Source: a virus
Lineage: Duplodnaviria > Caudoviricetes
Direction: 5' to 3' (one strand)
Virus record (IMG/VR): IMGVR_UViG_3300032243_001666
Span: 1 to 32,168 of that record
DNA length: 32,168 nt
Position numbers and translations under genes: made by a program. How positions within the stretch are numbered: position 1 is the first letter of the stretch; the number at the start of each line of letters is the position of its first letter. Below the pieces are notes generated by a model. It ran no database searches and had not been told where the DNA came from. It saw nothing but the letters and a program-made list of their open reading frames with translations. Below are positions 6,948 through 27,521 of this stretch, piece by piece.

Positions 6948-7616
6948 TTATTTAGTTTTTTTCATTAAGTTTTTAACATAATCAAAATTTGGATATTTTT
7001 TAGTACCTAGAATACCATCAGCAAAACCATAATCAACAGCTTCCTCTGCTGTTAATATCCAATCACATTTATTGGCTATTTGAGAAATGATATGTTTTTT
7101 AGCCATCATTTTTTTCCAATTTTTTTCTTTACATATACTACTATTCATACACCGATCAGTAAATACATCAATCATCTTATCGCACTCTCTTTCATTCCAT
7201 AAAATACCAGCAGCCGCTGCCTTACTATGTTCACCATCCAAACTAAAAGAACCATAATGAATCATCATGTTGGTATTTGGCATTAATATTCTTAGATTAG
7301 CAGCCTGAAATAGAAAGCTACTAGAAGATTCTGCTTTAGCATAAGCCACAATAATTATTTTGGCTTTGGATGCTTGTATAGCATCATACATACCCAAGCA
7401 ATCTTGCCAATCTCCGCCAGGAAGATGCATATGTACTAGGATAGGATCTAATGATAGTACATTTAAATATCTAAGATTTTTTTCAAAAACAACAGCGGAT
7501 TTATAGTCCACACCGGCTTCTTCTTCTCCATCAACCAAATAAGAATGTAAATAGATTTCTCTATTTTCTACGTCTAAATTATAGTTATGAATATCGTTTA
7601 GAGAGTTCTGATTCAT
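6948..7616 (-). CDS. clpP: ClpP-family protease
   Basis: REIYL, LPGG, AES (Ser), MMIH (His) and DWILTAEEAVDYGFAD (Asp); the triad appears intact. Confidence 0.9.
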   Translation of the reverse strand: MNQNSLNDIHNYNLDVENREIYLHSYLVDGEEEAGVDYKSAVVFEKNLRYLNVLSLDPILVHMHLPGGDWQDCLGMYDAIQASKAKIIIVAYAKAESSSSFLFQAANLRILMPNTNMMIHYGSFSLDGEHSKAAAAGILWNERECDKMIDVFTDRCMNSSICKEKNWKKMMAKKHIISQIANKCDWILTAEEAVDYGFADGILGTKKYPNFDYVKNLMKKTK

Positions 7617-8058
7617 GTTGGTTTTCTAATGCTTCATATACTTTGTCGTTAATTAATTTCATAGTTTCAGAATCATTAAAACATTTACCAACAGCTATTC
7701 TAAATCTATATCTAGTAAAAATATCTAAAATTTCAACACCATCAATATTTTCTATTGTATTTTTTATAAATTCAGAAATATTGAAATTACTATGACCAAT
7801 CCAAAAATTAAAAATTTTACTTGATGCAGTATGTTCGTTGTATGGTATAAGGCCGAGCGGCGAGGCGATGACTTTAATTGACTTCGAGATATTCTTAATA
7901 AGAGGGCGTTCTCTTGTTTCCTCGTCTGGCTCTTGAGAATCCATTAAAACACCCATCTCTGTATCATTATTATAGTCTGTCCATAAGGTTTCGTCTATAT
8001 CGTTACCGAATGGATCTATCCATTTTTCCCAAACAATTAGCGGCTTATGACTAGTCAT
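7585..8058 (-). CDS. Hypothetical protein
   Basis: 157 aa ORF in the operon; WEKWIDPF and IDGVEILDIFTRYRFRIAVGK suggest a folded alpha/beta domain. Confidence 0.75.
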   Translation of the reverse strand: MTSHKPLIVWEKWIDPFGNDIDETLWTDYNNDTEMGVLMDSQEPDEETRERPLIKNISKSIKVIASPLGLIPYNEHTASSKIFNFWIGHSNFNISEFIKNTIENIDGVEILDIFTRYRFRIAVGKCFNDSETMKLINDKVYEALENQHESELSKRYS

Positions 8059-8423
8059 TTATGAACCCCAGTTATTGCACAAAAACTTGAAGGAGAAATA
8101 ATAGGCTTGGTATTAATAGTAATAGGTTTATTATCTAGATTTTGAGACCACGAATGAATAGTATAATCTATAAAAGACTCATAATTAGGATGTTCTTTAG
8201 ATAAATCCACTAAAGAATCTAGAACAGATTTAGTATAATAACCATGATTTATTAAATATAATAAAAGACCAAAATTATTTGAAGATTCTAATGAGACATC
8301 ATTGATAATTAGTTTTATTTTAACTCGACTACTTTCATCTACAACAAAGCTAATAGAATTTTCTTTCTTAATAAGATGATTATTAAATTTGAATAGTTTT
8401 TGTATCAATTTATAAAAATACAT
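8055..8423 (-). CDS. Hypothetical protein
   Basis: 122 aa ORF with overlaps at both ends. Confidence 0.7.
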   Translation of the reverse strand: MYFYKLIQKLFKFNNHLIKKENSISFVVDESSRVKIKLIINDVSLESSNNFGLLLYLINHGYYTKSVLDSLVDLSKEHPNYESFIDYTIHSWSQNLDNKPITINTKPIISPSSFCAITGVHK

Positions 8424-8821
8424 TATTTTAGTTTTTGTATAACCTCTAATAATAGATTACCATATTTCATAGGTTCTTTATATTCAAAATTTAACCAATA
8501 ACAATTATTAATACTATGTGTATGATTAACTATAAAGCCATAGATAGTATTTAGTGTGTTTATATCTATTTCACTATTAACGATATCTATAGAATTTAAA
8601 GTAATTAATTGTGGTATTAATTCTAAATCATTTACAAAAATATAGTTTTTTAGAAATTTAATAAGATAATTATCTAAATCTGTTATATTATCCATGGTTA
8701 ATACAAAAGAAGGAAATGAAATATCTTCTTTTTGAGTAGACAGAATATATGTTTTATTATTTGGAATATCTGTACCAAAAACAACACAATGAATATTAAT
8801 ATCAAACTTTGAATTATCCAT
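8423..8821 (-). CDS. Degenerate Nudix-fold protein (NrtR N-terminal-like)
   Basis: IHCVVFGTD..TYILS..ISFPSFVL..DLDNYLIKFL..IPQLITL parallels NrtR-type VDCVIFGFD..KVLL..WALPGGFV..LDEAA.R.L..LEQLYTF; the Nudix box is absent. Confidence 0.5.
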   Translation of the reverse strand: MDNSKFDINIHCVVFGTDIPNNKTYILSTQKEDISFPSFVLTMDNITDLDNYLIKFLKNYIFVNDLELIPQLITLNSIDIVNSEIDINTLNTIYGFIVNHTHSINNCYWLNFEYKEPMKYGNLLLEVIQKLK

Positions 8822-9479
8822 GATTTGCTACCTCTCTAATCAGATCTATGGCTTTATTAAGACCCTGTCTTACAGCCTCTCTGGTGATGCCGTATTTTTT
8901 ACCAATCTTATCAAATGTATACGACTCAAAATAATATAGTCTGATATAGTCCTTTTGTCTAGCGCTTAAACAATCTAAAGATAAAAGTCCCTCTATTAGA
9001 TTAGACAGTTGTTCTTTTTCTTCTTTTTCAATAGCATAATCTTCTGGAGATAATACTCTAGTATCTTCAGTAAATGACTGAGTTGTAGTACTATCGTCGT
9101 TGTTTTCAATAACATGGTCTAAAGAGTATGCGGTCTTTTTAAATTTTTTATTTTTCTTGTAGTTTTTAGACACATATGTTTGAATTGCCCATAAAGCACA
9201 TTGGTTTCGATATGAATATTTTGTTTTTTTAGTTCCTTTAGTATTTTGATAGTTTTCATCCCATCTCCAATCTGCCATCATAATAGCACTAGCCACAGAA
9301 GATATAGCATCTTCATCCTTGAGCATTTTTGTAGATAGTCCTTGATAAAACTGTCTAGAAAATTTTGATATAGCCTTTTTAGCTAGTAACATATAATGAT
9401 CTAAACTATCAAATTCTATATTAGAGTGGTCCTTATAAGCGATCTTTTGATTACCAATACCGTTAAGCTGTAATAGCAT
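8814..9479 (-). CDS. Phage RNA polymerase sigma-70-family factor
   Basis: Region 2-like EDAIS..IMMADWRWD..KYSYRNQC and region 4 HTH LSARQKDYIRLYY..YTFDKIGKKYGITREAVRQ. Confidence 0.88.
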   Translation of the reverse strand: MLLQLNGIGNQKIAYKDHSNIEFDSLDHYMLLAKKAISKFSRQFYQGLSTKMLKDEDAISSVASAIMMADWRWDENYQNTKGTKKTKYSYRNQCALWAIQTYVSKNYKKNKKFKKTAYSLDHVIENNDDSTTTQSFTEDTRVLSPEDYAIEKEEKEQLSNLIEGLLSLDCLSARQKDYIRLYYFESYTFDKIGKKYGITREAVRQGLNKAIDLIREVANHG

Positions 9480-9811
9480 TATTTATCCTTTATAGTAAAG
9501 TCCTGTGGAATATTCTTATTAACTATATCACTAACTAAATGTTTGATTTGATTTCTTAAGTTTTCCCTTTGCTGTGGAGTGTATCCTATATTTATATCAT
9601 CTGTAGCATCCAAATTAAAATCCGCATAATACTTAGATATAATCTTATCTAAGTCATTTTCTTCTAAATCTATAAGATAGGTCTTTGGCTGAAGATATTT
9701 TAAAATCTCATTTAGTGATAAAATAATCACATCAGACTCTCTATAATTATGTTTATAGAGTAGTCTATTGATTAGCCATTTGATAAATAAAACTTTGCTA
9801 TCCTCTACCAC
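9479..9811 (-). CDS. Hypothetical protein
   Basis: 110 aa ORF, GTG start, AGGA upstream. Confidence 0.65.
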   Translation of the reverse strand: MVEDSKVLFIKWLINRLLYKHNYRESDVIILSLNEILKYLQPKTYLIDLEENDLDKIISKYYADFNLDATDDINIGYTPQQRENLRNQIKHLVSDIVNKNIPQDFTIKDK

Positions 9812-9827
9812 AGTCCTAATCCAATAT

Positions 9828-10349
9828 CTATTTAGTTAGTTTTTTCCATTGATCTGAGTCTGGTCTATCCTTATCTCCCGGTTTAGCTGGCCTGTAATTC
9901 TTGCCCATCTTTTCTTTTTTCTTTCTGATATTATCCCAAAGTCCCGGTTTTTTTTGTGATTCGCCCGCAATCATAGTTTTATCATCGTCAGCCAAGGGCT
10001 GGTTCGTGACAAAATCTTTCATTTCGCACGAAGCTCTGTACATTGCATGAATCTTATCATGCCATCCGGCATTTGTCAATTTTTGCACTGTACTTTCATT
10101 CTTAAGATGGTTCTGCATTTCTGCCATACAGCTATAAATAGCATTAACATGATCCATCATCACTGATGAATTAGTATTATTAAGAGGTGTATTGCTTTCA
10201 TCGTCCCCATATAGATCATCTAGATTTTTCATTGTGGATGGACCCATTTCAAAATCATTAATGTTATTATAATCATTATTTGATTTAGTTTTTTGGGCTG
10301 CTTTTAATAATGAATCTAGAATATCATAAAATCTATCCATAATTATCAC
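9828..10349 (-). CDS. Hypothetical protein with a basic C-terminal motif
   Basis: C-terminal KKPGLWDNIRKKKEKMGKNYRPAKPGDKDRP, a motif type recalled from phage proteins. Confidence 0.7.
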   Translation of the reverse strand: MIIMDRFYDILDSLLKAAQKTKSNNDYNNINDFEMGPSTMKNLDDLYGDDESNTPLNNTNSSVMMDHVNAIYSCMAEMQNHLKNESTVQKLTNAGWHDKIHAMYRASCEMKDFVTNQPLADDDKTMIAGESQKKPGLWDNIRKKKEKMGKNYRPAKPGDKDRPDSDQWKKLTK

Positions 10350-10358
10350 CTTTGGTAT

Positions 10359-10943
10359 TTAAGCTTGAATACTTAAGAAATTATCTAGGCCCATTTCTTC
10401 AATAAGTTTTAGAAAACCTTCATATAATATGATGCCGTCTTCAGAGCCTTGTAATAATGGTATCATAATATTAGCAGTTAACTCATCTCCTACTGCACGA
10501 GCAGCAACTATAGTGTCTCTTTCTGCTCTGGATGCTTCCTGAACAGATGCTAGATTATAGTTGATCATAGCTACCATATCATGGCGTTTCCAGCTTGGAG
10601 GAGACACTGTTAGGGGTTGATAGTCGGCATCAAAAAACTCTAATCTAGATAGATTAATCATGGCGTGTTCATGCTCCTGCTTGGCATCCTCTTTAATAAC
10701 TGTTGCTAGTTTTTTATAACCCCATCTATCTAAATGCACAGCTTGGGCAGAAAGAACTGTTGTTTGTTGCCAGTGTATATTTAAAGATTTTTTGAGTAAG
10801 TCTAAAACAGTATCGTTTGTATAGTTTTTAGCTTCTTTATCGGATATCATATCCGGGTGTTTTGGTTCTTCTGCTGCAACAACTTGCTGTATTTCACTGG
10901 TCTGAGACTGTTCGTTTAAAAATTCTTGTATATTCTTATTCAT
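10359..10943 (-). CDS. bfr: Bacterioferritin-like protein (divergent)
   Basis: HLDRWGYKKLA...EHEHA...RLEFFD..P and GDELTANI align to Bfr helices; several ferroxidase ligands are altered. Confidence 0.75.
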   Translation of the reverse strand: MNKNIQEFLNEQSQTSEIQQVVAAEEPKHPDMISDKEAKNYTNDTVLDLLKKSLNIHWQQTTVLSAQAVHLDRWGYKKLATVIKEDAKQEHEHAMINLSRLEFFDADYQPLTVSPPSWKRHDMVAMINYNLASVQEASRAERDTIVAARAVGDELTANIMIPLLQGSEDGIILYEGFLKLIEEMGLDNFLSIQA

Positions 10944-10984
10944 AATTAGAAATCCGTTTTTTTTGTAGTTGATATAAAATTATT

Positions 10985-11509
10985 CTACCAGCTCTTACAG
11001 GCCCAATACCGACTTTTCCACCTGGGTCCAGGACTATCACACCTCATTCTTGCTCTAAAGCTTTTTCTTCTTTCCGGTATATTCTTTTTAATTGTCATAT
11101 TAGGATCGCCAAAGTTAACTTTAACTACATTACCTTTATCATTTTTAACATAGACACTAAATTTTTTAGGCCCATCGGGTGTTCTAAAAGGTTTATTAAG
11201 AGTAACTTTTTTACCATTTTTTTCTGCTGCTATAATTTTATCTTCTTCGTCGTAAATAACACCGGCTTCTATCTCCCAAATAAATTCATCCCATTCATCG
11301 TCCCAATAACAATTATTAGCTAATAAATTATCTTGAACATCATTTAATAAATCAGATTTAGATTTATCTTTTTTTGTTTGACTGATACATATGGCAACTC
11401 TTTGTTTAGTATCAGGATATTCTTTTTTCATCACTTCGTCGCTCATGCAACGAGATATGAATTTTTGTTTATCTTCATCGGTATGTTTATCGGGTATTGG
11501 CATTATCAT
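10985..11509 (-). CDS. Two-domain hypothetical phage protein
   Basis: N-terminal FISRCMSD..QRVAIC motif, acidic Trp-rich linker, basic C-terminal domain KVNFGDPNM..RRKSFRAR..RYWAC. Confidence 0.75.
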   Translation of the reverse strand: MIMPIPDKHTDEDKQKFISRCMSDEVMKKEYPDTKQRVAICISQTKKDKSKSDLLNDVQDNLLANNCYWDDEWDEFIWEIEAGVIYDEEDKIIAAEKNGKKVTLNKPFRTPDGPKKFSVYVKNDKGNVVKVNFGDPNMTIKKNIPERRKSFRARMRCDSPGPRWKSRYWACKSW

Positions 11510-12578
11510 TATCCTTGATGGTTTGTAAAATAATATTTGCTGTATTAGTCCATGAGTACTGTTTGGCCGTTAATACGCCTTCTGGATTATTATCGATATG
11601 ATTAGTATACACATATTTCATATAATGAACCGTTTGATCCAGCTCATTGCGGTCTAATTTAGCCCAATTACCACTACCCAAAAACCATTTACCATCATTA
11701 GCCACTTCTAGTTCATCTGTATTTATTAAATAGCAATTTTTATCATTACAATATTCTGTGTGTGCAGAATAATTTGTTGCAATAATTGGTTTATTCATTG
11801 CCATGCTTTCTATGATCTCGTTATTCCATCCTTCTGCCCTAGAAGGAAAAACCCCACAATCAGCATGATAAATAAATTCAGCTAAATGATATTGCGTAGG
11901 AAGTCTGTTAAAAATTTTGATTTTATTTTTTAGCTTATTATTTTCAACTAAATTAAGCCATTCTTGTGTTTCTTGTTCAGATAAAAAGGGGTTGAAAGGT
12001 AATAGCCATAATTCTACACTATCATTCTCTGTAAATGCGGATTCAAATGCTTTTAATAGAAAATCTTGACTTTTCCTTTTTTCCCATTTTCCGATATGAA
12101 AAAATATATAATTTTCTTTTTCTACCCTAATTTTATTTGGGGGTTGAAAAATTTCTAGGTCCACCCCTAATGGAGAAACATAAATAGGTTTACTAATATT
12201 GTTTTTTTCTAAAACTTCTTTTGCCCAATGAGATGCTACAAAAACATAATCAGCATAATTAATATGATGTTGTTCTCTTTGTGTTAGTCGGTCTAGTTCA
12301 AAAAAAGGTAATACATAATAGCTGCCATTACCAATCTTTAGAGCCAAATCATGTTGATGCCAAATTTTCAGGCACGGAGCATTATAATCAAAACTATTAC
12401 TATTTTGCAATAACTGACGGATAATATCCCTATCAGCCTCTGAATTAATCTCTACATTATTTCCAATAGGAAATAAAGAAATATCCATATTTTGAGCATG
12501 TATTGCTTTAATAATATTTAGGGAAGTGATACCATATCCAGTGCCATTAATCGGAGCATTGATATTAATAGTTTTCAT
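11487..12578 (-). CDS. Glycosyltransferase, GT4 (GT-B fold)
   Basis: TGYG, IGKWEKRK, PSRAEGWNNEIIESMA (EX7E). Confidence 0.9.
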   Translation of the reverse strand: MKTININAPINGTGYGITSLNIIKAIHAQNMDISLFPIGNNVEINSEADRDIIRQLLQNSNSFDYNAPCLKIWHQHDLALKIGNGSYYVLPFFELDRLTQREQHHINYADYVFVASHWAKEVLEKNNISKPIYVSPLGVDLEIFQPPNKIRVEKENYIFFHIGKWEKRKSQDFLLKAFESAFTENDSVELWLLPFNPFLSEQETQEWLNLVENNKLKNKIKIFNRLPTQYHLAEFIYHADCGVFPSRAEGWNNEIIESMAMNKPIIATNYSAHTEYCNDKNCYLINTDELEVANDGKWFLGSGNWAKLDRNELDQTVHYMKYVYTNHIDNNPEGVLTAKQYSWTNTANIILQTIKDNDNANTR

Positions 12579-13639
12579 TTTTCATATATCCTATTATGTG
12601 TATCGTTGACTAATATAAATGTAGTTTTTTTACCAAAGTCTTTAATCTTAGACGCGCCTATATAAGTACAAGAGCTTCTTATGCCACCAAAAATATCTTT
12701 AAGAATTTCTACTACCGGACCCTTATAAGATACTGTGACACATTTTCCCTCGCTCGTTCTATAATGAGCAACACCGTTATGGTGTTTGTACATAGCCTCT
12801 TTGGAACTCATTCCGTAAAATTTTAGCGATATTTTGTGCATTTCTGCATCATATTCCCATTCTCCTTCACACTCATCAGTTCCTGCAAAAAAACCTCCAC
12901 ACATTACAAAATCCGCATTACAACCAAAAGCCTTACAAATATCACCAACACTTTTGCAGCCGCCATCAGCACAAATATGTCCACCTAGTCCATGAGCAGC
13001 GTCAGAACATTCCATGATTGCAGAAGCTTGAGGATATCCTATTCCTGTTTTTAATCTTGTAGTACATACAGAACCAGGACCTATTCCTATTTTAACAATA
13101 TCTATTTTGCCATGTAATAATAATTCTTCAACCATCTCTGGTGTCACCACATTGCCTGCCATTATAATAATATTGTCATATAGCTTTCTGATATGGGCAA
13201 CTGTTTTGACAAACTTTTCGCTATAGCCATTTGCTACGTCTACGCAAATATTAGGTAGTTCACGACTTTTATCTCTAAGAGTATTAAATATATGTGTTAG
13301 TTTTTCAATATCATTAACAGTAGTGCCTGTAGAATAAAACACTAAATGCCTATAAGGAATGGTTTCATTTGAATAAAAATCTATAAGCTGCTCACTAGAG
13401 TAGTGCTTGTGTAAAGCGACTATACCACCCTGAGAACAAACCTCTTTTGCCATATTAAAAGTACCAGTAGTATCCATATTAGCTACCATAATTGGTATAG
13501 CAGAGATTTGTCTAGGAGAATGTAGAAAATGAAAATCTCGTGTAATATTTACTTCTGATCTACTAGATAAATTAGATCTTTTGGGTCTAATTAATATATC
13601 ATCAAAATCTAGTTTAATATCAGTAATAATTTTTTGCAT
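12575..13639 (-). CDS. guaC: GMP reductase
   Basis: LDFDDILIRPKRS, ANMDTTGT, DVANGYSE, GIGPGSVCTTR, FYGMSS, SEGK. Confidence 0.95.
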   Translation of the reverse strand: MQKIITDIKLDFDDILIRPKRSNLSSRSEVNITRDFHFLHSPRQISAIPIMVANMDTTGTFNMAKEVCSQGGIVALHKHYSSEQLIDFYSNETIPYRHLVFYSTGTTVNDIEKLTHIFNTLRDKSRELPNICVDVANGYSEKFVKTVAHIRKLYDNIIIMAGNVVTPEMVEELLLHGKIDIVKIGIGPGSVCTTRLKTGIGYPQASAIMECSDAAHGLGGHICADGGCKSVGDICKAFGCNADFVMCGGFFAGTDECEGEWEYDAEMHKISLKFYGMSSKEAMYKHHNGVAHYRTSEGKCVTVSYKGPVVEILKDIFGGIRSSCTYIGASKIKDFGKKTTFILVNDTHNRIYEK

Positions 13640-13647
13640 AATTGAAC

Positions 13648-14103
13648 CTATTTAGGAAGATTTATTTTATTTTTATCATTAAAATATTGCCCACCATAAC
13701 TAACAAAAATTTCTTCACCCTTTTTAATATCTTCTACACATATTACATCTGTTAATAGTTGTTTATAATTAAATTTCCACATTGCATTAGGTTTGTCTTG
13801 GTGGTTGTATAGCATACCATATCCTAAAACCATATAGAATAAAAATCCATGAGTTTGGCAGTCTTTGCAAGAACACGGTGGCTGAGCATACATATAATTA
13901 AAAATTTGTGGATCAAGCTGATATCTTGATCTATATTCCATTGGAATAAGCGGGCATCTTTCTATAATTTGGTTTTTAAAAATATTTTTTGTAGCAAAAA
14001 CACCACGACCATGAATTGGAGAATTGCCAATTATGATACTATTTGACTGAATATAGTCTAGTTGTTGAGGATCGTCTGGTCTAACATAATGTTCATTATT
14101 CAT
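13648..14103 (-). CDS. SET-domain methyltransferase
   Basis: SPIHGRGVFA, LYNH and IKKGEEIFVSYG motifs. Confidence 0.9.
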   Translation of the reverse strand: MNNEHYVRPDDPQQLDYIQSNSIIIGNSPIHGRGVFATKNIFKNQIIERCPLIPMEYRSRYQLDPQIFNYMYAQPPCSCKDCQTHGFLFYMVLGYGMLYNHQDKPNAMWKFNYKQLLTDVICVEDIKKGEEIFVSYGGQYFNDKNKINLPK

Positions 14104-17369: not shown

Positions 17370-20324
17370 TTAAAGAATACCTAAAATATTAGATCCATTG
17401 ATTCCACGACCTTTATTCAGATCGGAAATGTCAAGATTGCCGATAATGTTGTTGGGAAGAATACAATTTCCGACTAGAACAATAGTCCCTACGTTTCCGC
17501 GGCTGGCGTTGGGCACGCTGTTGATACTACCGCCAGAACCGCCAAACGTATTAATGTCGCCAGAGTTACTGTCAGTCAATGAAATATAACCGCCATTTCC
17601 GCCGGTTGCCGTTCGCCCCGGATCGGAACCAAGTGTTGCCGCGGTGCCGCCGGAGCCGCCAACGCCATACAGCGGGCCAACATTGCTACGCACTAAAGTG
17701 ATGCTGCCTGCGTGCCCGCCATAAGCTTGATCAGCGCCACTGCTATTGCCGCTACCGCCAAACACAAAAATATTATTTGCAGAGCTGTCCGTTAAAGATA
17801 CCACGCCGCCATTTCCGCCATCTCCGCAACCATATGTAATAAGGCTGCCGTCACCACCATTCCCGCCGACAGAATTAATATTGGAAGATGTGCTTCGGAC
17901 TAACGTAACGCTACCGCCAGAACCACCTTGACCGTAACCGTTGTTACCACCATTTGCACCAGCCACGATAATATCGTTGGCTGTGCTGTCTGTTAGGCGC
18001 ACTACGCCGCCAGAGCCAGAAGTATTGCTGGTGTCTCCGCCTGCGCCGCCGCTGGCTACAATAGACCCGGCATGGCTGTTGGTTGTCAGCGCCACGCTGC
18101 CGCCCACGCCGCCAAAGTAGTTGCTATAGCTGGTATTTACATTGCTATATGTGATGTCGCCGCCGTTTACAACAATATTGCCAGCCGTGGAATTATCCAG
18201 CGTAATTACGCCACCGGGGATGGCGGCAGGATCGCCGTATGTGAAATTAAAAGAGGACGCACTGGCGTAAATACCGCCAGCCGTACTATCGGTCAAACTG
18301 ATTACGCCAGCATTGCCAGAACTACCGCTAAGTTCATTGCCCGCTAAAGTTGCACTAACGGCGTATATGTCAGATACCGTAGAGTTAGTTATTGTGACGC
18401 TGCCCGTGCTGCCGACACCGCCATTAGTACTGCTGTAGAACTGCCCGCCGCCGTCTGTAACGAGAACACCAGCGGTGCAATTCGTCAGCACAATATTGCC
18501 AGAGTTGCCGCCAGAAATAATGTCCGCAACGCCGACACCGTTCACGCCAGAATTGCCGCCGGTTGTAATAATGTTTCCAAGATTCACGGTGTTGTCTGAA
18601 ATAACCGTGACGTTTTTTCCGTCGGTTGGATTAGAGACTACTGCGTTGGCGCCGTAATCAAAAACCATGTCATTACCAACCGCAATGATTCCGCCAATAC
18701 TAGAGGTTGCTGAGCTTACTCCTTTTATTTGTATTGTTACCGGCCAATTGTCAGCGTAAGCTATGTTCAAATTAACGGCGCCGAAAGAACCGCTGTCGAT
18801 GTGGATAGTCCGTGCGCTCTCTTCAGCCCAATAATAAGCCATTTCAAAGGCCCGCTGCGGATTGGCGAGCGGATGTGCTTCTGTGCCGTCGTTGTTGTCG
18901 CTGCCGCCGTCTGCCACATAAATAGTGGTCGGGCTGGTCGGCGTATAGACAGCAGTACCAACTGTTCCAGTGTTGAATCTTTTACCAGCAAACGTGGCGG
19001 TTCCAGATACAACGCCATTGTTCGTTGAAGTATCGTTAAATGTGGCGTTACCAGATACTGTGCCGTGTGACCCACCCCAATAGCCGAGATCATTTCTGTC
19101 GTTTGTGTTTTCGCTATTGTTTCCGAAGGTCGCGTTGCCGGTCACGGTTCCAATGTTTCTGCTATTGTCGAAACTAGCGTTGCCCGTAACAGTCCCGAGA
19201 TTCCAAGAACCAGCAGAAAAACTTACGTTAGCGCATGTAATATTGCCGCTGTTGGTATAACCGAAACCTACTGTCGCCGCGCCAAGGACTGTTACAGTTG
19301 CGGTGCTAGTTAAATACGAATCAATGTAGTTCAAACTAGTGCCACTTAAATAAAGATTGTTTACAGTGCTGCTGCCAGAAAGAGGATAAGTATTTACGTT
19401 AACATTGTCCGCACTGGTCGGAGGAGAATAGCAAGTGAACGGGCCGGGACCAGAAAAACTATCAAGATATACTTCCCAATAATTTGTTGACTCTAAGCTA
19501 ACCGCATTTGTAGCGCTAAAATATCTGGGCGTTGTTCCGTCTACAACAGGACTGCCGTTTAAATACAACGCGCCGCTGTAGTCGCCGGTGCCGTTTCTGT
19601 CCAGCGTAGTTGCAACGCCAGCAAAATAATAAGTGTTAGTTGCGGTATCCCAACCTTCAAACAATGTTGGGTAGGCTGAGTAGTGATTTCCGTCGTAATC
19701 GCCGTAGCCAGTGCTATCCAGAGCCGTAGCAACGCCGCTGATATAGTAGATAGAGTCGCAGGTGTTGTAGCCAGTGTCTGTGGCCGGATTAAAGGTTACG
19801 CTTCCGGCGGTGTAAATTTCATTGTTCCAGCAGCCGGTGCCGTCGCTGTTCAGCGTAGTTGCAACGCCGTCAATGTAATAGGTGCTAGTAGTTGCGTCCC
19901 AACCATTAAACAACGTCGGGAAGCTTGAAAAATGATAACCATTGTAATCACCGTAACCCCCAGCTCCCAGTCCGGGAACAGGCTGGAGGAAACCTGAATG
20001 GCCAGAAGCCATTAAAAACACACCAGCGCAACTGCTGTATCCGTAATATACTCCGTATGTGAAGTCATACGGTACTGGCTGATTATCAATTCTTGTCCCG
20101 GCAGAAATGCCTCCATTGCCGCACGAATCCAAACCTTCTTGCTCCACACCGTTTACATAGTACTTGTTATTGGTTGTATCCCCCCCAGCCCAAAGCGTGG
20201 GATAAGACGAATAATGAAGTAGTGGACTGCCGAAATCACCGTAGCCAGTGCTATCCAGAGTAGTTGCAACGCCGTCAATGTAATAGGTGTTTGTTTCTGC
20301 ATCCCATCCGTTTGTTGGCGGCAT
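17370..20324 (-). CDS. Large Gly/Ser/Thr-rich repeat protein, probable tail fibre/spike or virion adhesin
   Basis: 984 aa; N-terminal GWD-TYY-GVATTLD repeats, central GTVTGNATF repeats, YVADGGSDNNDGT..P motif, C-terminal GGxGG-LTxS beta-solenoid repeats. Confidence 0.75.
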   Translation of the reverse strand: MPPTNGWDAETNTYYIDGVATTLDSTGYGDFGSPLLHYSSYPTLWAGGDTTNNKYYVNGVEQEGLDSCGNGGISAGTRIDNQPVPYDFTYGVYYGYSSCAGVFLMASGHSGFLQPVPGLGAGGYGDYNGYHFSSFPTLFNGWDATTSTYYIDGVATTLNSDGTGCWNNEIYTAGSVTFNPATDTGYNTCDSIYYISGVATALDSTGYGDYDGNHYSAYPTLFEGWDTATNTYYFAGVATTLDRNGTGDYSGALYLNGSPVVDGTTPRYFSATNAVSLESTNYWEVYLDSFSGPGPFTCYSPPTSADNVNVNTYPLSGSSTVNNLYLSGTSLNYIDSYLTSTATVTVLGAATVGFGYTNSGNITCANVSFSAGSWNLGTVTGNASFDNSRNIGTVTGNATFGNNSENTNDRNDLGYWGGSHGTVSGNATFNDTSTNNGVVSGTATFAGKRFNTGTVGTAVYTPTSPTTIYVADGGSDNNDGTEAHPLANPQRAFEMAYYWAEESARTIHIDSGSFGAVNLNIAYADNWPVTIQIKGVSSATSSIGGIIAVGNDMVFDYGANAVVSNPTDGKNVTVISDNTVNLGNIITTGGNSGVNGVGVADIISGGNSGNIVLTNCTAGVLVTDGGGQFYSSTNGGVGSTGSVTITNSTVSDIYAVSATLAGNELSGSSGNAGVISLTDSTAGGIYASASSFNFTYGDPAAIPGGVITLDNSTAGNIVVNGGDITYSNVNTSYSNYFGGVGGSVALTTNSHAGSIVASGGAGGDTSNTSGSGGVVRLTDSTANDIIVAGANGGNNGYGQGGSGGSVTLVRSTSSNINSVGGNGGDGSLITYGCGDGGNGGVVSLTDSSANNIFVFGGSGNSSGADQAYGGHAGSITLVRSNVGPLYGVGGSGGTAATLGSDPGRTATGGNGGYISLTDSNSGDINTFGGSGGSINSVPNASRGNVGTIVLVGNCILPNNIIGNLDISDLNKGRGINGSNILGIL
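19590..20315 (-). repeat. About five imperfect intragenic repeats (about 26 aa)
   Basis: GWDAETNTYYIDGVATTLDSTGYG, GWDATTSTYYIDGVATTLNSDGTG, GWDTATNTYYFAGVATTLDRNGTG and others; DNA gtagttgcaacgccgtcaatgtaataggtg is seen twice. Confidence 0.85.
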
Positions 20325-20327
20325 AGA

Positions 20328-22370
20328 TTAGTATCCTGGTATAAAGGCTATAATGTCCCACTTATCGCGTCCAGCATGATATGTAGCAGCAAGAACGTCC
20401 ATTTTACTGGATTCTGTACTCCATGGCAAAGGAGAGGTGGCACTACTAGGAATATTAAATTTGTTACCAAGAGATATTGTGCGATTTCCCGTAGAGTCTT
20501 GGGTTATTCTCCAACGTAGTGTTTTACCATTTACTGGATTAGTGGGGTTAGCTAGTGTAGTATTGCCAGTAAGAGATATATCAAATATGTCTCCAGTACT
20601 AGCATTAGTATTAATTGTTGATGAATATGATAAATCTACAACAGTTGTTGAACCACTTCCTCCTAATACGGATGTTCCGTTACTGTCTACAATATCGCCG
20701 TCTATTGGTAATGTTAATTTGCCATTTGTGCCAAAAGTCCATTGATTATTATTATTGTCTGTACCAACAATAACATCTCCACCATTTTTTTGTATCTTAA
20801 CATATTGATCATCATCCCCCAAGTATAAATCAACAGTTGCTGGATCCCCAGATAATAGATGAACATGACTATGCTCTGAATTAACCATTCCATTATTGGT
20901 CACGGTAATAAATTGACCAGTAGGCATTCCGTTAGATTCTTCAAAATTATAATATAATGCTGGATAAAGGTTTGCATCTGCAACATCTGGACCCGGTCTT
21001 GTTCCATCAACACTTGTTAGTGTTAGAGTAAATTCAGTAATATTGCTATTTGCTGGTATGGTCCAAGTAATAGTTTCTGTGTCTGGAGCAGAGGTACTTA
21101 CGAAAGTTAACTTGCCAGTTAGTGCTCGACCCAATGATTGTGGAGTAACTCCAGTACCAGAGATCGTATAGTTTACTGTTCCAAAATAAGCCCAATTTTG
21201 TAGAGTAACTGAAATAGTTATAGGATTACCATACTCAATATAATTACTAGTGCTCATTCCCCATGTAGCTTGAGTAGGACGAATTACTAAACTTTGTCCA
21301 ACAGCTGCTGTGGGCGGTGCTATAGAAACAGTATTATTTGTTTCGGTTAATGTTCCGCCTTTCGGTAATGTTAAGCCTCCATTTGTGTCAAAGTTCCAAC
21401 TTTTTGCTTGAGCGGCGGCACTTGTTTGAATTAGCGTATTATCAACACTTTGTATATTATATGTTCCAGGAGCAACAATAGTTCCTCCACTACTAGTTGT
21501 TCCATCTGGATGTGTTAATTTACCATCATTACCAAAATGCCACTCACGATTCCAATATGGATTGGTGCCGTCATTATCTCTATAATTTCCAATCCAAGTG
21601 CCATCATATGATGTCCAAAGATAACCATCGCTATTATTGTTTGGATTTTCTATATAGTTATATGGTGTTCCACTAGGACCAGAATGATACCATAATTCAA
21701 CATAATTTGAACTTTTAATATCTATAGTATCTCCACCAACATCTAGGGCGCTCATTGGTAAAAATACTTTACCATCTGGCTTAAACTCCCATCTGCTACC
21801 GCCACCATCAGCATTAATAGCAACTATACCACTTGGATAGCCAGCACTAATATTAACATTTCCACCTTGTAAGGTAGAATTTCCAGCGCTAATACTAACT
21901 TGGCCACCTTGATTATGTCCATTACCAGCATCTATATTAATATATCCGCCCTGACCAGACTCATTACTATCAGCATCACCAGCATAAATTTTAATATCGC
22001 CACCATTAACATCACTATCACCCCCCCATAAATAAACATCTCCACCCTCACCATTACCCTGAGCGCGTTGACCTTGGATAATTAATCTTTGGGCCGTATC
22101 TCCAGATGCTGCTGGTGTTGGACCAGTAATTACCGATTGCTTAGTGTTATCATTAAATTTTAATAATTGAGCGGACTGAATTCCACCATTATGTAAATCT
22201 ATATTTCCTACTTGAAAAGATGATGAACTTCCAATAGCTGCACTTAATTCACTAAGAGATACTTTTTTTGTAGTAGCAGATCCGCTTGGATCATCCATTA
22301 TCAGAAAGATATCATCGCTACTTAATGCTCCGCTACCTTCTGGAAATTCATTAATTCTTTTAATACTCAT
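20328..22370 (-). CDS. Probable tail fibre/virion protein
   Basis: N-terminal INEFP..SSDDIFLI..TKKVSLSEL attachment-type motif, GGxVxIxAG repeats, four WxFxx(D/N)GxxxxP repeats, C-terminal LTGNTTLANP..ITQDSTGNRT domain. Confidence 0.75.
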   Translation of the reverse strand: MSIKRINEFPEGSGALSSDDIFLIMDDPSGSATTKKVSLSELSAAIGSSSSFQVGNIDLHNGGIQSAQLLKFNDNTKQSVITGPTPAASGDTAQRLIIQGQRAQGNGEGGDVYLWGGDSDVNGGDIKIYAGDADSNESGQGGYINIDAGNGHNQGGQVSISAGNSTLQGGNVNISAGYPSGIVAINADGGGSRWEFKPDGKVFLPMSALDVGGDTIDIKSSNYVELWYHSGPSGTPYNYIENPNNNSDGYLWTSYDGTWIGNYRDNDGTNPYWNREWHFGNDGKLTHPDGTTSSGGTIVAPGTYNIQSVDNTLIQTSAAAQAKSWNFDTNGGLTLPKGGTLTETNNTVSIAPPTAAVGQSLVIRPTQATWGMSTSNYIEYGNPITISVTLQNWAYFGTVNYTISGTGVTPQSLGRALTGKLTFVSTSAPDTETITWTIPANSNITEFTLTLTSVDGTRPGPDVADANLYPALYYNFEESNGMPTGQFITVTNNGMVNSEHSHVHLLSGDPATVDLYLGDDDQYVKIQKNGGDVIVGTDNNNNQWTFGTNGKLTLPIDGDIVDSNGTSVLGGSGSTTVVDLSYSSTINTNASTGDIFDISLTGNTTLANPTNPVNGKTLRWRITQDSTGNRTISLGNKFNIPSSATSPLPWSTESSKMDVLAATYHAGRDKWDIIAFIPGY

Positions 22371-23436: not shown

Positions 23437-24171
23437 TTACTTAGTATTAGCTAATATCCATTCTAGGTTCTCACTTATTCTAGTATGTCCACTTTCAGTA
23501 TCGTAGTCTGATTTTGGTGAATTTTTAGAAAATACACAAGAATTAATACCGGCTAGCTTGCCGTCTATAAATAAACCCCCACCGCTATCTCCACTTGCTA
23601 TTAAAAATTCTAAGCTAGTTTTTTTATCTGTTTTAGATGGGGAGCATACTAACAAATGTTTATCAATATAATCTATAATATTTGATCCTGCTCTTTGTTT
23701 TCCGTCGCTGTGTGTTGCTCCACTTATAAAGTTTCCTGTTAATCCAAAACCAGATATAGAACAAATTTTATCTATTTCATTTTTATTCTCATATAGCTCT
23801 GGGTAATACTCTAAACCTAAATCCTGTTTAGTATATCCTATTGCTATATCATGATATCCAACATTAGATTCTGAGAATTCTTGTGGAATAATAATTTTAG
23901 AAATATGAAAAGTTTTATTCTTAAAAGTTATATCGCAACTCTCAATATCTCTAACAACATGTGCAGCGGTTAAAATAAAATTAGGTTTAATGGCAACGCC
24001 GGAGGCTTTATAGATTTGGTTCTCTTTATTTGTGCCAGATATTTGTCCAACAAAATAAAAACCCTTAGCATATTCTATATATTTAGAGTCTGTTGTATTT
24101 GGATCTATAGTTCCGGCCAAAGAATGGCCTATTAAATATAAAAATATTAGTAATGACGCAAAAAACCTCAT
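23437..24171 (-). CDS. Secreted trypsin-like serine protease (S1)
   Basis: Signal peptide; LTAAHV, DIA and GDSGG catalytic triad; GGAGG RBS. Confidence 0.92.
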   Translation of the reverse strand: MRFFASLLIFLYLIGHSLAGTIDPNTTDSKYIEYAKGFYFVGQISGTNKENQIYKASGVAIKPNFILTAAHVVRDIESCDITFKNKTFHISKIIIPQEFSESNVGYHDIAIGYTKQDLGLEYYPELYENKNEIDKICSISGFGLTGNFISGATHSDGKQRAGSNIIDYIDKHLLVCSPSKTDKKTSLEFLIASGDSGGGLFIDGKLAGINSCVFSKNSPKSDYDTESGHTRISENLEWILANTK

Positions 24172-24182
24172 GTTTCCTCCTA

Positions 24183-24491
24183 TTACAGAGGTTTATGTAA
24201 TATCCTATTATAATACACCCTAGTATCTTCAATAACCGAAATATTCCAACTTTTAAAATCCATTAAATGGCCAAATATTATATGACAAGGATCAGCACAA
24301 AGAGTTATGAGATTTGTGGGGTCAAGTTCTAGATCTGGATTAATATGTACTGGTTTAATATGATGTACTTCTACTTTTTTACTTTTACCACAAGCAGCGC
24401 ATCTTGGATTTAATGCAAGATGATTTTTTCTAACATTAGTCCACTTGGGCGACCTGACTGCATATCTGACTTTTTTCAGAAAGTTAAACAT
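24183..24491 (-). CDS. HNH endonuclease
   Basis: CAACG..VEVHHIKP..NLITLC..CH..H. Confidence 0.9.
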   Translation of the reverse strand: MFNFLKKVRYAVRSPKWTNVRKNHLALNPRCAACGKSKKVEVHHIKPVHINPDLELDPTNLITLCADPCHIIFGHLMDFKSWNISVIEDTRVYYNRILHKPL

Positions 24492-24495
24492 TATG

Positions 24496-25503
24496 TTATG
24501 ATAAAACTTTTGCTGCTATTAAACAACCTTTAGCAACAGCGTGTAGAGGATCTGACGCATGAGATACTTCTTTAATAACTAATGGAAAATTATTTTCAGA
24601 TAGTTTTTTAGTAAAAATTTCTATATATCCATTAGCTTGAGAAGTGCCACCAGCTACAACAATTTTTAATGGATTTTTAAATTTCGGTAATGACTTATGA
24701 TTAATTAATGCTGCCGATAGTTGTTTAGTGGTATAATCAATAAGTCTTTCATAATAAGATGATACAGCACCCAATACTGGATTTTCGCTTGGCTCACCTA
24801 TTTTAAAACCACCCGCCTCCTTTTCGGCTTGAACAACACTGTCGGGTTCTCCGGTGGCTATAGCACTCATACGATCAACCCAGTCTCCACTTTTAGTTGT
24901 GCTGAAAACCACCGTTGGCTCACCATTTAGCATCACACAAACATTTGTCATTCCTGCTCCACAACTAATAGCTATTCCAGTATAATCTTCTGATTCTAAT
25001 TCAGCATAACATAAAGCTTCCGCCTCATTAATAGCTCTTGCTGAATAACCTACTTCATTTAAAATTGTTTTAACAACATCTTCATGATATCCAACATCAA
25101 AATCTTCATCTTCTTGGTCTACTGGTTGTGCCGGAACGCAAAAAACTAATTTTTCACCGGGTTCTGATGCTTTTCCGACTACTTCTTGCAGGATAAAAGA
25201 TAGTATTCTTTTAGCATCTTTTTCTTTGGCAGAAACGACGCCTTTATACATCGGCCTTTTTGCTGTATCATTTCTTTCTATTGCTTTTTCAATAGCGTCT
25301 TTACCTAAAAGAATAAAAGATCCATCACTATCCTTAATAAAAACTTTCCCATGCAAACCTTTTTCTATCATTTTGGTTGCAACAGGGGTTGTTGGTTTAA
25401 TAATATAAAAAGCATCTCTAAAATCTTTATATGTTATTCCATTATTAGTATCTTGAGATAATACAATAAAGCTTGTACCAACATCTAGTCCTACGCCTGC
25501 CAT
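24496..25503 (-). CDS. Actin-fold ATPase, volactin/MreB/FtsA superfamily
   Basis: Phosphate 1 GLDVGTS, connect 1 INEAEA, phosphate 2 ISCGAGMTN, adenosine VVAGGTS, connect 2 DPLHAVAKG. Confidence 0.9.
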   Translation of the reverse strand: MAGVGLDVGTSFIVLSQDTNNGITYKDFRDAFYIIKPTTPVATKMIEKGLHGKVFIKDSDGSFILLGKDAIEKAIERNDTAKRPMYKGVVSAKEKDAKRILSFILQEVVGKASEPGEKLVFCVPAQPVDQEDEDFDVGYHEDVVKTILNEVGYSARAINEAEALCYAELESEDYTGIAISCGAGMTNVCVMLNGEPTVVFSTTKSGDWVDRMSAIATGEPDSVVQAEKEAGGFKIGEPSENPVLGAVSSYYERLIDYTTKQLSAALINHKSLPKFKNPLKIVVAGGTSQANGYIEIFTKKLSENNFPLVIKEVSHASDPLHAVAKGCLIAAKVLS

Positions 25504-25506
25504 AAT

Positions 25507-25839
25507 TTACCCTTTCATATTTTTTAGTTTATTCACAGACAAAGAAATATTTTCTTCAGAAGTTTTTGTATCCCCTAAACTATCGTATTTCTTTTCCATT
25601 CCTGTTGTTTTAATATCTACAACATACTTAGTATCATCAATAGATATATTGTTTTTAACTTGAGCTTTTTCTTCACTAAAAAAGCTTTTTGGCTTATTAC
25701 TAACATTAGTATATACACCGTTGCTATTTGAGTTTTTGCCTATTAAGTATCCTATAAAAAACAAACACACCCCTAAAAATAGGAGTGTGAATGAGAATAA
25801 TATTAATGTTGGTAAATTACTATTTATTTCTACTATCAT
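25507..25839 (-). CDS. Single-TM membrane protein, putative actin partner
   Basis: N-terminal TM (LILFSFTLLFLGVCLFFIGYLIG), low-complexity linker, ISIDDTKYVV motif, amphipathic C-terminal SVNKLKNMKG. Confidence 0.75.
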   Translation of the reverse strand: MIVEINSNLPTLILFSFTLLFLGVCLFFIGYLIGKNSNSNGVYTNVSNKPKSFFSEEKAQVKNNISIDDTKYVVDIKTTGMEKKYDSLGDTKTSEENISLSVNKLKNMKG

Positions 25840-26735
25840 AATTTATTACCTATTATTCTACCTTTGGGCGTTCTAGTTACAAATCCTTCTCTCACCAAAA
25901 ACGGCTCAATGCTATTTTCTATAGTTTCAATAGCTATTCCGCTAAGTGATGATATACTTTTAAGACCCAAAGCATTACCTTTAGCTTTTGTTAAAACTTC
26001 TAAATATAGTCTATCATAGACATCTAGACCTCTACTATCAATACCCTGACTATTAAATACTTCATCAATAGTTACCATCTTATTTGGATAAAAAGCTGTA
26101 TAATTTTTATACCATTGTAGTCTTGCATTTAAAATACGCGGAGTTCCTTTGCTTCTTTTTGCTATCTCTAAAAGATGCTCATCAGAAATAATTAGTCCGA
26201 GTTTTTTTGCGTTCGACCCTGCTAGTTTGGCTAACTCATCGGGAGTATAGAAAGATAAATGTTCTTTAATAGTGAATCTATCATAGAATGGTTGACTTAA
26301 ACTACCGCCACTAGTTGTTGCTCCAACCAAAGTAAACATTGGAAGATCAATCTTCTCTGGCTTATCCTCTACTGTGATGTTTAACACAAAATCTTCCATC
26401 ACAGGATATAGAAATTCTTCTACAATCTTGGGTAGTCTATGAATTTCATCAATAAATAATACTGATCGCGGAGCAATTCCCATTAGGTATGGTAGAATAT
26501 TTTTAATGCTCCGTACATTAGCCGCATTAACCACATGAAGGTTTACGTTGAGTTCGTTGGCTATAGCACCCGCTATGGTAGTTTTACCAAGGCCGGGAGG
26601 GCCGTCTATTAAAACGTGAGGCATCACACCCTCAGAGTTTAAACAGCCATGCACCATGATGCGTAGACGATTCACAACATCTGCTTGACCTATTACATCA
26701 TCAAATTTAGATGGACGAATAACATTATTAGACAT
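25836..26735 (-). CDS. ruvB: Holliday junction branch-migration AAA+ motor RuvB
   Basis: IRPSKFDDVIGQ, GPPGLGKTT, LFIDEIHRL, LYPVMEDF, GATT, DRF, GTPRI, EPFL..GF..RTPKGR. Confidence 0.95.
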   Translation of the reverse strand: MSNNVIRPSKFDDVIGQADVVNRLRIMVHGCLNSEGVMPHVLIDGPPGLGKTTIAGAIANELNVNLHVVNAANVRSIKNILPYLMGIAPRSVLFIDEIHRLPKIVEEFLYPVMEDFVLNITVEDKPEKIDLPMFTLVGATTSGGSLSQPFYDRFTIKEHLSFYTPDELAKLAGSNAKKLGLIISDEHLLEIAKRSKGTPRILNARLQWYKNYTAFYPNKMVTIDEVFNSQGIDSRGLDVYDRLYLEVLTKAKGNALGLKSISSLSGIAIETIENSIEPFLVREGFVTRTPKGRIIGNKL

Positions 26736-26740
26736 AAAAG

Positions 26741-27130
26741 TTAATTCCTCAAGGACTCCAAAGTTTGTTTTACCAAAGTTCCAAAATCATCAACAGGATT
26801 GTTTATATAAGAAGCATTAATTAATTCTGATGCTTCTGTTTTAGTAAATCCGTAGCTAACCAGTAGTGTAACTGATTTTTCTAGTAATTCCACTGGAATT
26901 TTAGGGATTTCTACAAGTTTAGGCTTAACAGACTTAAACTTTAGCTGAAATCCAACTACTCTTTTTACCTTAAATACTTCTCCACAGTCACATACTATTT
27001 TAAAATTAATAGTTGATGCTTCTTTATATGAAAGCCAATGATCCTGAGAACACTGGGGACATCTATATTTTATATGAATATCTTGATCAATCGGTTTCTG
27101 GAGTTTCTTTTTCGTTTTCATTATTTTCAT
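26741..27130 (-). CDS. Zinc ribbon fused to a RuvA C-terminal (domain III)-like domain
   Basis: CPQC..CDCGEVF zinc ribbon; C-terminal SVTLLVSYGFTKTEASELI..TLVKQTL resembles RuvA domain III (AVAALVALGYKPQEAS..TLIREAL); directly upstream of ruvB. Confidence 0.75.
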   Translation of the reverse strand: MKIMKTKKKLQKPIDQDIHIKYRCPQCSQDHWLSYKEASTINFKIVCDCGEVFKVKRVVGFQLKFKSVKPKLVEIPKIPVELLEKSVTLLVSYGFTKTEASELINASYINNPVDDFGTLVKQTLESLRN

Positions 27131-27521
27131 TTACCCAAAAGATAAAATCATTACGCTCTTCATCAAAAGCGCTTTCCAATAATCCATCATTCACAAGTTT
27201 ATTTAAAATATTACTAACCATTCTGCTATTAAAAGACTCTAACATTTCAGTTAAAATTTTATCATTAATATAATATCTAATAGCTTTGGTTTTTTTATTA
27301 ATTTTCTTTTTCAGAAAATTCTTAGCAATAATCTCACATTCAGAAAAAGATAACATAGCATCCATTTCTTCTTCTTCTGTAGGAGTAAGTCTAGCTATAA
27401 GTCCAGTAAAAGAATCAGATGCGTTTTGATTTACTTCTCCAAAGAACTTAAAGACTAATCTTCTAGCATGATCAATAAAAGAAGGCAAGTCCTTTACAAT
27501 ATACCATCCATTATTTTCCAT
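27087..27521 (-). CDS. Hypothetical protein, possible winged-helix C-terminus
   Basis: 144 aa; ILNKLVNDGLLE followed by a putative beta hairpin. Confidence 0.7.
   Translation of the reverse strand: MENNGWYIVKDLPSFIDHARRLVFKFFGEVNQNASDSFTGLIARLTPTEEEEMDAMLSFSECEIIAKNFLKKKINKKTKAIRYYINDKILTEMLESFNSRMVSNILNKLVNDGLLESAFDEERNDFIFWVNENNENEKETPETD

Follow-up and report, generated by a model that had tools for sequence, protein, structure and literature searches.

The phage cytoskeletons PhuZ, TubZ and AlpC position DNA via tubulin or DNA-binding adaptors. Phage-encoded actin is already known in the form of AlpC (PMC4446434), and in Haloferax volcanii, volactin forms dynamic filaments whose tips attach to the membrane (PMC10869688). 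Among DNA motors, RuvB is bound by domain III of RuvA at its helix a3 and presensor-1 hairpin (PMC9477746). Here we describe a virus record from IMG/VR (IMGVR_UViG_3300032243_001666; Duplodnaviria, Caudoviricetes) in which the genes for a volactin-family actin and for RuvB are separated by a single small gene. The window that we analysed is the entire record, 32,168 bases, and its main genes are on the minus strand. A first-pass annotation had joined five adjacent genes in the window into one coupled machine. We think it likely that they are two separable phage modules, an anchored volactin and a RuvB with an optional, cut-down RuvA, together with an accessory nuclease. The five genes, with lengths in amino acids (aa) and the evidence for each, are:

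27130-26741, minus strand: zinc-ribbon and RuvA domain III protein, here called mini-RuvA, 129 aa (cysteines, profile and fold matches)
26735-25836, minus strand: RuvB AAA+ DNA motor, 299 aa, intact motifs (NF000868, structure alignments)
25839-25507, minus strand: single-pass membrane protein, here called the anchor, 110 aa (hydrophobic segment, conserved C-terminal tail)
25503-24496, minus strand: volactin-family actin-like ATPase, 335 aa (Pfam PF25216)
24491-24183, minus strand: small HNH endonuclease, accessory, 102 aa (Pfam HNH, PHROGs)

The known system most similar to the actin module is the volactin of H. volcanii (VolA, HVO_2015). The two actins belong to the same Pfam family and share their nucleotide motifs, including the serine of the second phosphate loop, and in both phage and Haloferax a membrane-protein gene adjoins the actin gene (the CdpA-like HVO_2016 in Haloferax; PMC10869688, PMC12126565). 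The actin described here differs in being phage-encoded and about 34% identical to the cellular volactins compared. Its partner is a 110-aa, single-pass protein encoded upstream, whereas the archaeal partner is a multi-pass DUF7139 protein encoded downstream, and no homology was detected between the two. We propose no role in cell shape for the phage actin. Volactin was found in 15 of a sample of 151 archaeal genomes (from the phylum of a metagenome-assembled genome [MAG] titled Thermoplasmatales), and all eight readable membrane neighbours were DUF7139 proteins.

The second module shares with bacterial RuvAB (PDB 1IXS, 7PBL; PMC9477746) a complete RuvB with its presensor-1 hairpin and a partner that has RuvA domain III. 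Unlike RuvAB, it is phage-encoded, a zinc ribbon replaces RuvA domains I and II, the partner is optional, and there is no RuvC family match. In a survey of 224 jumbo phages, RuvC was not coupled to a RuvB-like ATPase (PMC7824862). Like the nucleus-forming jumbo phages with their PhuZ spindle (PMC7162821), the phages described here are large and would have a cytoskeletal filament of their own; unlike PhuZ, the filament protein is an actin instead of a tubulin and has a dedicated membrane partner, and the general tubulin profile PF00091 matched none of five large relatives. In a full-text search, with subscription journals and supplements outside its scope, neither phage volactins nor a phage RuvB paired with a cut-down RuvA came up as the subject of a paper. 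The main text of PMC7162821 does not use the word 'actin', and its supplement may list such genes. Each module is apparently an undescribed variant of a known system.

Results

The five genes are tightly spaced in the window and are often rearranged in its relatives

The first-pass annotation had reported five minus-strand open reading frames (ORFs) separated by 5 nucleotides (nt), an ATGA overlap (25836-25839), 3 nt and 4 nt, and we confirmed each of these positions and spacings. It had also named the genes well, and the actin can now be refined to the volactin family. The tight spacing itself is real but not special, since 23 of the window's 43 other junctions likewise measure no more than 5 nt. 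A second run of five such junctions is present elsewhere in the window, and the run in question extends past the five genes: the two upstream genes overlap by 44 and 11 nt, and the gene for a trypsin-like protease starts 11 nt downstream. Promoter-like sites were at chance level (33 versus 33.7 expected). The five genes are probably co-transcribed.

We searched IMG/VR with the actin and with RuvB and took the best 80 of 308 and the best 80 of 280 confirmed stretches, giving 156 loci in total on contigs of up to 238 kilobases (kb). The relatives sampled are close ones only (actin 82-89% and RuvB 71-91% identical). A full RuvB was present in 148 loci, which formed 82 clusters at 95% identity, and counts below use the clusters with enough flanking sequence. 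The usual gene order is rIIA, rIIB, two or three small genes, a 144-aa gene, mini-RuvA, RuvB, an optional thioredoxin gene, the anchor, actin, an optional HNH gene, the trypsin-like protease and an optional subtilase. Two of these neighbours bear on what follows:

27087..27521, minus strand: conserved 144-aa protein, possibly winged-helix (weak fold matches)
23437..24171, minus strand: trypsin-like serine protease with a hydrophobic N-terminus, a probable signal peptide (Pfam Trypsin, E 1.1e-12)

The genes differ in how regularly they are present. The 144-aa gene was found in 80 of 80 clusters and mini-RuvA in 65 of 80; the anchor and actin were each found in 66 of 73, the protease in 65 of 73 and HNH in 41 of 73. 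The full five-gene order was kept in 16 of 71 distinct relatives. Junctions of 30 nt or less were found between mini-RuvA and RuvB (66/66) and between anchor and actin (61/67), and in fewer cases between RuvB and anchor (26/68) and between actin and HNH (26/40). Among the RuvB-found clusters with both flanks (n = 38), a set that is unbiased for actin, the anchor alone separated RuvB from actin in 15, more genes lay between them in 16, and actin was gone from the locus in 7. The nearest RuvB relative of the window (L081) has RuvB followed directly by HNH, in a locus that ends 2.6 kb further on. We used both quick and FastTree trees; on the FastTree tree of RuvB, the distribution of mini-RuvA needs at least 10 changes and that of actin needs 7.

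The actin is a volactin whose gene travels with that of the anchor

The actin matched the Pfam family Volactin (PF25216) over residues 4-331 with 208 bits (cut-off 35; E 3.2e-61), and profiles for MreB, MamK, salactin and BeeR scored far weaker. In an alignment with six other volactins it had the nucleotide-site motifs of the actin fold (which we take to be phosphate 1, connect 1, phosphate 2, adenosine and connect 2), matching the cellular proteins there at about 34% overall identity, and the key residues of the site were invariant in 49 phage sequences. A profile of the family matched no solved structure by sequence. Of six genes compared, actin is the most conserved, with a mean identity of 82% in 68 distinct relatives (RuvB, 73%). 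The six matches to the actin in GTDB were on short contigs in unrelated MAGs; the anchor gene accompanies five of them, and phage DNA binned into the wrong genomes is the probable source. Volactins that are 31-35% identical to the actin were found in two huge phages of 485 and 595 kb (LR745208.1, L163; LR756511.1, L164), where no match to RuvB, mini-RuvA or the anchor lay within 6 kb of the volactin gene.

Two further features were seen among more distant volactins. In 17 of the best 150 representatives, the gene is interrupted close to the second phosphate loop by an insert of about 360-380 aa (for example L162:2061-4172), which the junction residues alone suggest is intein-like. Four proteins (P0213, P0230, P0268 and P0154) have N-terminal extensions starting with Cys pairs that resemble zinc ribbons.

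The anchor has one hydrophobic segment (residues 12-30) and a C-terminal tail (residues 67-110, about 44 residues) that is conserved in 65 sequences. No Pfam family was consistently found; DUF7139 was absent among the 25 of 40 families listed for the 65 anchors, and the ESM Atlas contained only unnamed look-alikes. By eye, the last helix of the anchor looks like a helix of DUF7139; we rejected this candidate, which scored below controls.

The anchor gene was upstream of the actin gene in 137 of 137 loci (not deduplicated), and actin adjoined the anchor in 69 of 70 anchor-found loci. The two genes had shifted as a unit in five loci (L119, L122 and L144-146) and were 8.9 kb from RuvB in one record (G302). 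Neither was found in three RuvB-bearing records of 112-158 kb (G001, G002 and G003), in which positive controls were detected. No fusion of anchor and actin was present among the best 150 volactin representatives. In eight loci (L031, L034, L079, L092-L095 and L142), the anchor and actin are separated by an inserted gene of about 200 aa, which presumably encodes a GIY-YIG homing endonuclease, judging from its resemblance to that motif.

The anchor was the only gene that clearly tracked the divergence of actin. We compared seven genes in the 55 phages that carry all of them, using a background-corrected correlation and 2000 permutations. The correlation between anchor and actin was 0.40, a value reached in 0 of 2000 permutations. 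Correlations of RuvB with actin (r = 0.08; 293/2000) and with the anchor (r = 0.02; 780/2000) were at background level. For the 144-aa gene the values were 0.16 with RuvB (7/2000) and 0.10 with actin (182/2000). The constant association in 137 loci and the matching divergence support one part of the first-pass annotation, a phage actin that is tethered to the membrane.

RuvB is complete and its RuvA-like partner is optional

RuvB scored 302.5 bits with NF000868 (cut-off 282) and 277.8 bits with TIGR00635, below the cut-off of 299. It aligned over its full length to solved RuvB structures (best E 1.7e-65) and has the winged-helix head and the presensor-1 hairpin; the Walker A and B motifs, arginine finger and sensor II were invariant in 58 RuvB sequences.

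In mini-RuvA, two Cys pairs (C24, C27, C47 and C49) were invariant in 72 aligned sequences. A profile of the family matched RuvA domain III of 1IXS (1IXS_A, E 2.6e-4), with matches confined to the C-terminal 50 residues or so. Pfam RuvA_C was found in 12 of the 72 members at E<=0.05; the protein in the window is not among these and had no Pfam match of its own. In its structural model (predicted local distance difference test [pLDDT] 90, predicted template modelling score [pTM] 0.46), an N-terminal region rich in beta structure is joined by a linker to a three-helix bundle. In a fold search the top seven hits were all RuvA, none at E<=0.001, and 1IXS_A superposed with a root-mean-square deviation of 1.8 Å over 48 columns. 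Domains I and II of RuvA, responsible for junction binding and for the tetramer, are absent, and a Cys4 zinc ribbon plus linker makes up the N-terminal half.

In relatives without mini-RuvA, RuvB has the 144-aa gene as its immediate neighbour (24 loci, and one more with a damaged region). In seven whole records that lack mini-RuvA at RuvB, four of them with terminal repeats, the gene was not found elsewhere in the record (controls detected, 3/3). Hydrophobic residues occupied both hairpin positions 120 and 122 of RuvB in 62 of 66 sequences with mini-RuvA versus 8 of 15 without it. When 80 hydrophobic columns of RuvB were ranked by relaxation, four of the top five (I77, M85, I120 and V122) were in the presumed docking surface for RuvA domain III (hypergeometric p 0.0014, with related rows); helix a3 of RuvB was assigned from the alignment, and the bounds of the docking region were drawn by us. 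The tendency of this surface to decay without mini-RuvA is only suggestive, because the rows are related, only two independent pairs of relatives are on supported branches, and the placement of helix a3 is inferred. Together with the profile and fold matches, this pattern supports the adaptor for RuvB, built on RuvA domain III, that the first-pass annotation had recognised.

Unlike mini-RuvA, the 144-aa gene is upstream of RuvB in all 80 relatives and is the most constant neighbour of RuvB. The model of its product (pLDDT 84) had weak matches to winged helices of the SarA, MarR and TubR type, none at E<=0.001, and the family matched no solved structure by sequence. This protein is possibly a winged-helix, DNA-binding partner of the RuvB motor.

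A DNA-binding winged helix next to an actin gene could also point to a DNA transporter of the ParM or AlpC type, with the 144-aa protein as the adaptor and the anchor fixing the other end of the filament to the membrane. We consider this improbable. As in AlpAC (Corynebacterium prophage CGP3) and ParMRC, the phage actin gene is probably co-transcribed with a small upstream partner gene, and a role for AlpAC in bringing phage DNA to the membrane has been proposed (PMC4446434); the weak resemblance of the 144-aa model to TubR, SarA and MarR also fits. However, no fold match of the 144-aa protein reached E<=0.001, its divergence does not follow that of actin, and its gene stays in all seven relatives without actin at the locus. 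AlpA binds DNA repeats (PMC4446434), whereas the window encodes a membrane protein as the partner. Between 22300 and 29400, none of the 20 largest families of repeats formed a regular non-coding array, although degenerate sites could escape. The phage actin belongs to the volactin family. The lack of such an array and of a coupled DNA-binding adaptor argues against a mechanism like that of ParMRC or AlpAC.

The HNH gene is probably a passenger, and a likelier resolvase is encoded upstream in large relatives

The first-pass annotation had suggested HNH as a substitute for RuvC, and this was not supported. The protein matched Pfam HNH (28.2 bits, cut-off 21.4) and PHROGs HNH families, and is of a small, common phage type. 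Its gene is missing from 32 of 73 relatives and varies in position, with actin, RuvB, a thioredoxin or a different gene before it depending on the relative. HNH is probably an accessory passenger. RuvC (PF02075) was found in none of five large relatives (control, 8/14), and the window contig itself is a fragment. A gene with an endonuclease VII domain was present in six of six large relatives, including the 238-kb G007, at 9-16 kb upstream of RuvB; it was not visible to the first-pass annotation because the contig ends 5.4 kb upstream of RuvB. Based on its family, endonuclease VII is the likelier junction resolvase. In G007, 219 scans covering part of 313 called ORFs also found RecA, an ERCC4 nuclease and several other HNH proteins.

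These results bear on the five genes as a single machine, in which anchored actin, RuvB loaded by mini-RuvA, and HNH would together position replicating phage DNA, pump it and resolve it. In its favour, co-transcription is probable, 33 of 40 RuvB-found relatives have both modules at one locus, the tubulin profile PF00091 matched none of five large relatives, and AlpC, an actin encoded by a prophage, aids the replication of phage DNA (PMC4446434). Against this, few relatives keep the five-gene order, RuvB and the anchor are mostly not tightly joined, HNH is often missing, and the anchor-actin pair can be absent or relocated. mini-RuvA is missing from 15 of 80 relatives and from seven of seven whole records checked, four of them closed; the divergence of RuvB and actin is at background; and endonuclease VII is available. 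We regard a single machine as very improbable. Unlinking of the two pairs in relatives, which the first-pass annotation had named as the finding that would count against its proposal, is seen in part, and in most relatives the modules are still near each other.

The protease neighbour raises the question of an envelope role

Three proteins (P0391, P0392 and P0393) are natural fusions of a trypsin-like protease with the entire anchor, with the catalytic motifs kept. They suggest a topology for the anchor with its N-terminus outside and its tail in the cytoplasm, and they hint at an envelope role for the anchor-actin pair. The protease gene adjoins the pair in 38 of 41 actin-found relatives, and the neighbours f17 and f14 encode thioredoxin and subtilase. 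From these associations one could picture a filament that positions an exported protease at membrane sites and remodels the host surface, for phage release or for exclusion of other phages. On the other hand, the three fusions look like one lineage or event and could come from a lost stop codon in genomes with the protease gene ahead of the anchor gene, an order found in five relatives (L071, L073, L080, L119 and L203). The protease is kept in six relatives where the pair is missing (L096, L103, L113, L114, L117 and L118), and its divergence tracks that of actin weakly (r = 0.16; 56/2000). We hold an envelope role to be unlikely, if less so than transport of DNA.

Other features of the window and its relatives

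A tRNA-like non-coding element is at 28300-28205 on the minus strand, between rIIB and a 137-aa gene. A T-loop motif was present at this place in 73 of 76 distinct relatives. The element has a T-arm and a short D-like stem, with compensatory changes in four of eight predicted pairs (17 sequences) and a variable middle; ARAGORN made no call at this site in the window or in 16 loci, and Rfam had no match in the window.

At 17370-22370, two long ORFs (984 and 680 aa) had no family matches and no close match in the fetched relatives, and G+C content rises to 52% versus about 32%. Host-like genes at 6948-14103 encode a ClpP-type protease, a sigma-70 region-4 protein, a ferritin-like protein, a glycosyltransferase, an IMPDH/GMP reductase and a SET-domain protein. 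One relative carries DUF1501, a domain that we take to be common in Planctomycetota; its homologues bore no informative taxon names.

Discussion

Based on the gene order, the divergence and the distribution of these genes, we favour two separable modules. In the first, the actin would polymerise with ATP, and the single-pass anchor would likely tether the predicted filaments to the host membrane, its cytoplasmic tail binding the filament. Binding at the filament end is probable because Haloferax volactin filaments meet the membrane by their tips. The filaments may organise membrane sites during infection instead of segregating DNA; segregation is disfavoured, as the pair is accompanied by neither a centromere nor a DNA-binding adaptor. 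In the second module, RuvB would migrate branches during recombination-dependent phage replication. Domain III of mini-RuvA likely docks on RuvB as a tether and activator, with contact to DNA coming from its basic zinc ribbon or from the constant 144-aa neighbour, and endonuclease VII, encoded elsewhere, would cut the junctions.

Several observations weigh against this reading. The two modules remain in one locus in most RuvB-found relatives, which may reflect a loose functional linkage. The three large records without the pair are linear (CheckV 81-100%) and may be incomplete, and there is no closed genome among the actin-lacking records examined. Shared divergence of adjacent genes is compatible with co-transfer without binding as well as with binding. 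One relative (L214) has an anchor without an actin match and two (L215 and L216) have only partial actin matches, possibly from decay of actin in one lineage. In an underpowered phylogenetic pair test the signal of hairpin decay did not survive, with only two independent pairs on supported branches. Finally, comparison of the anchor profile with archaeal DUF7139 gave E 0.09, and the score of the tail alone (9.5) was below that of unrelated controls (up to 16.4). With no detectable relatedness, we treat the anchor as an analogous partner and not as a homologue of DUF7139.

The larger claim of an actin-linked DNA motor was not borne out. It is a doubtful but distinct idea that a widespread lineage of lytic phages builds, by way of a dedicated adaptor with one helix, an anchored volactin cytoskeleton that organises the envelope from the inside, with an exported protease at the filament tips, and moves no DNA. 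If true, it would be a DNA-independent use of actin by a phage, of which we found no example in the literature searched. The two-gene unit of actin and anchor, which comes from a diverse and abundant lineage of phages, is a small, expressible system for testing how volactin-type filaments attach to membranes. RuvB with only domain III of RuvA, or with none, could serve as a set of natural variants for asking what the motor gains from RuvA.

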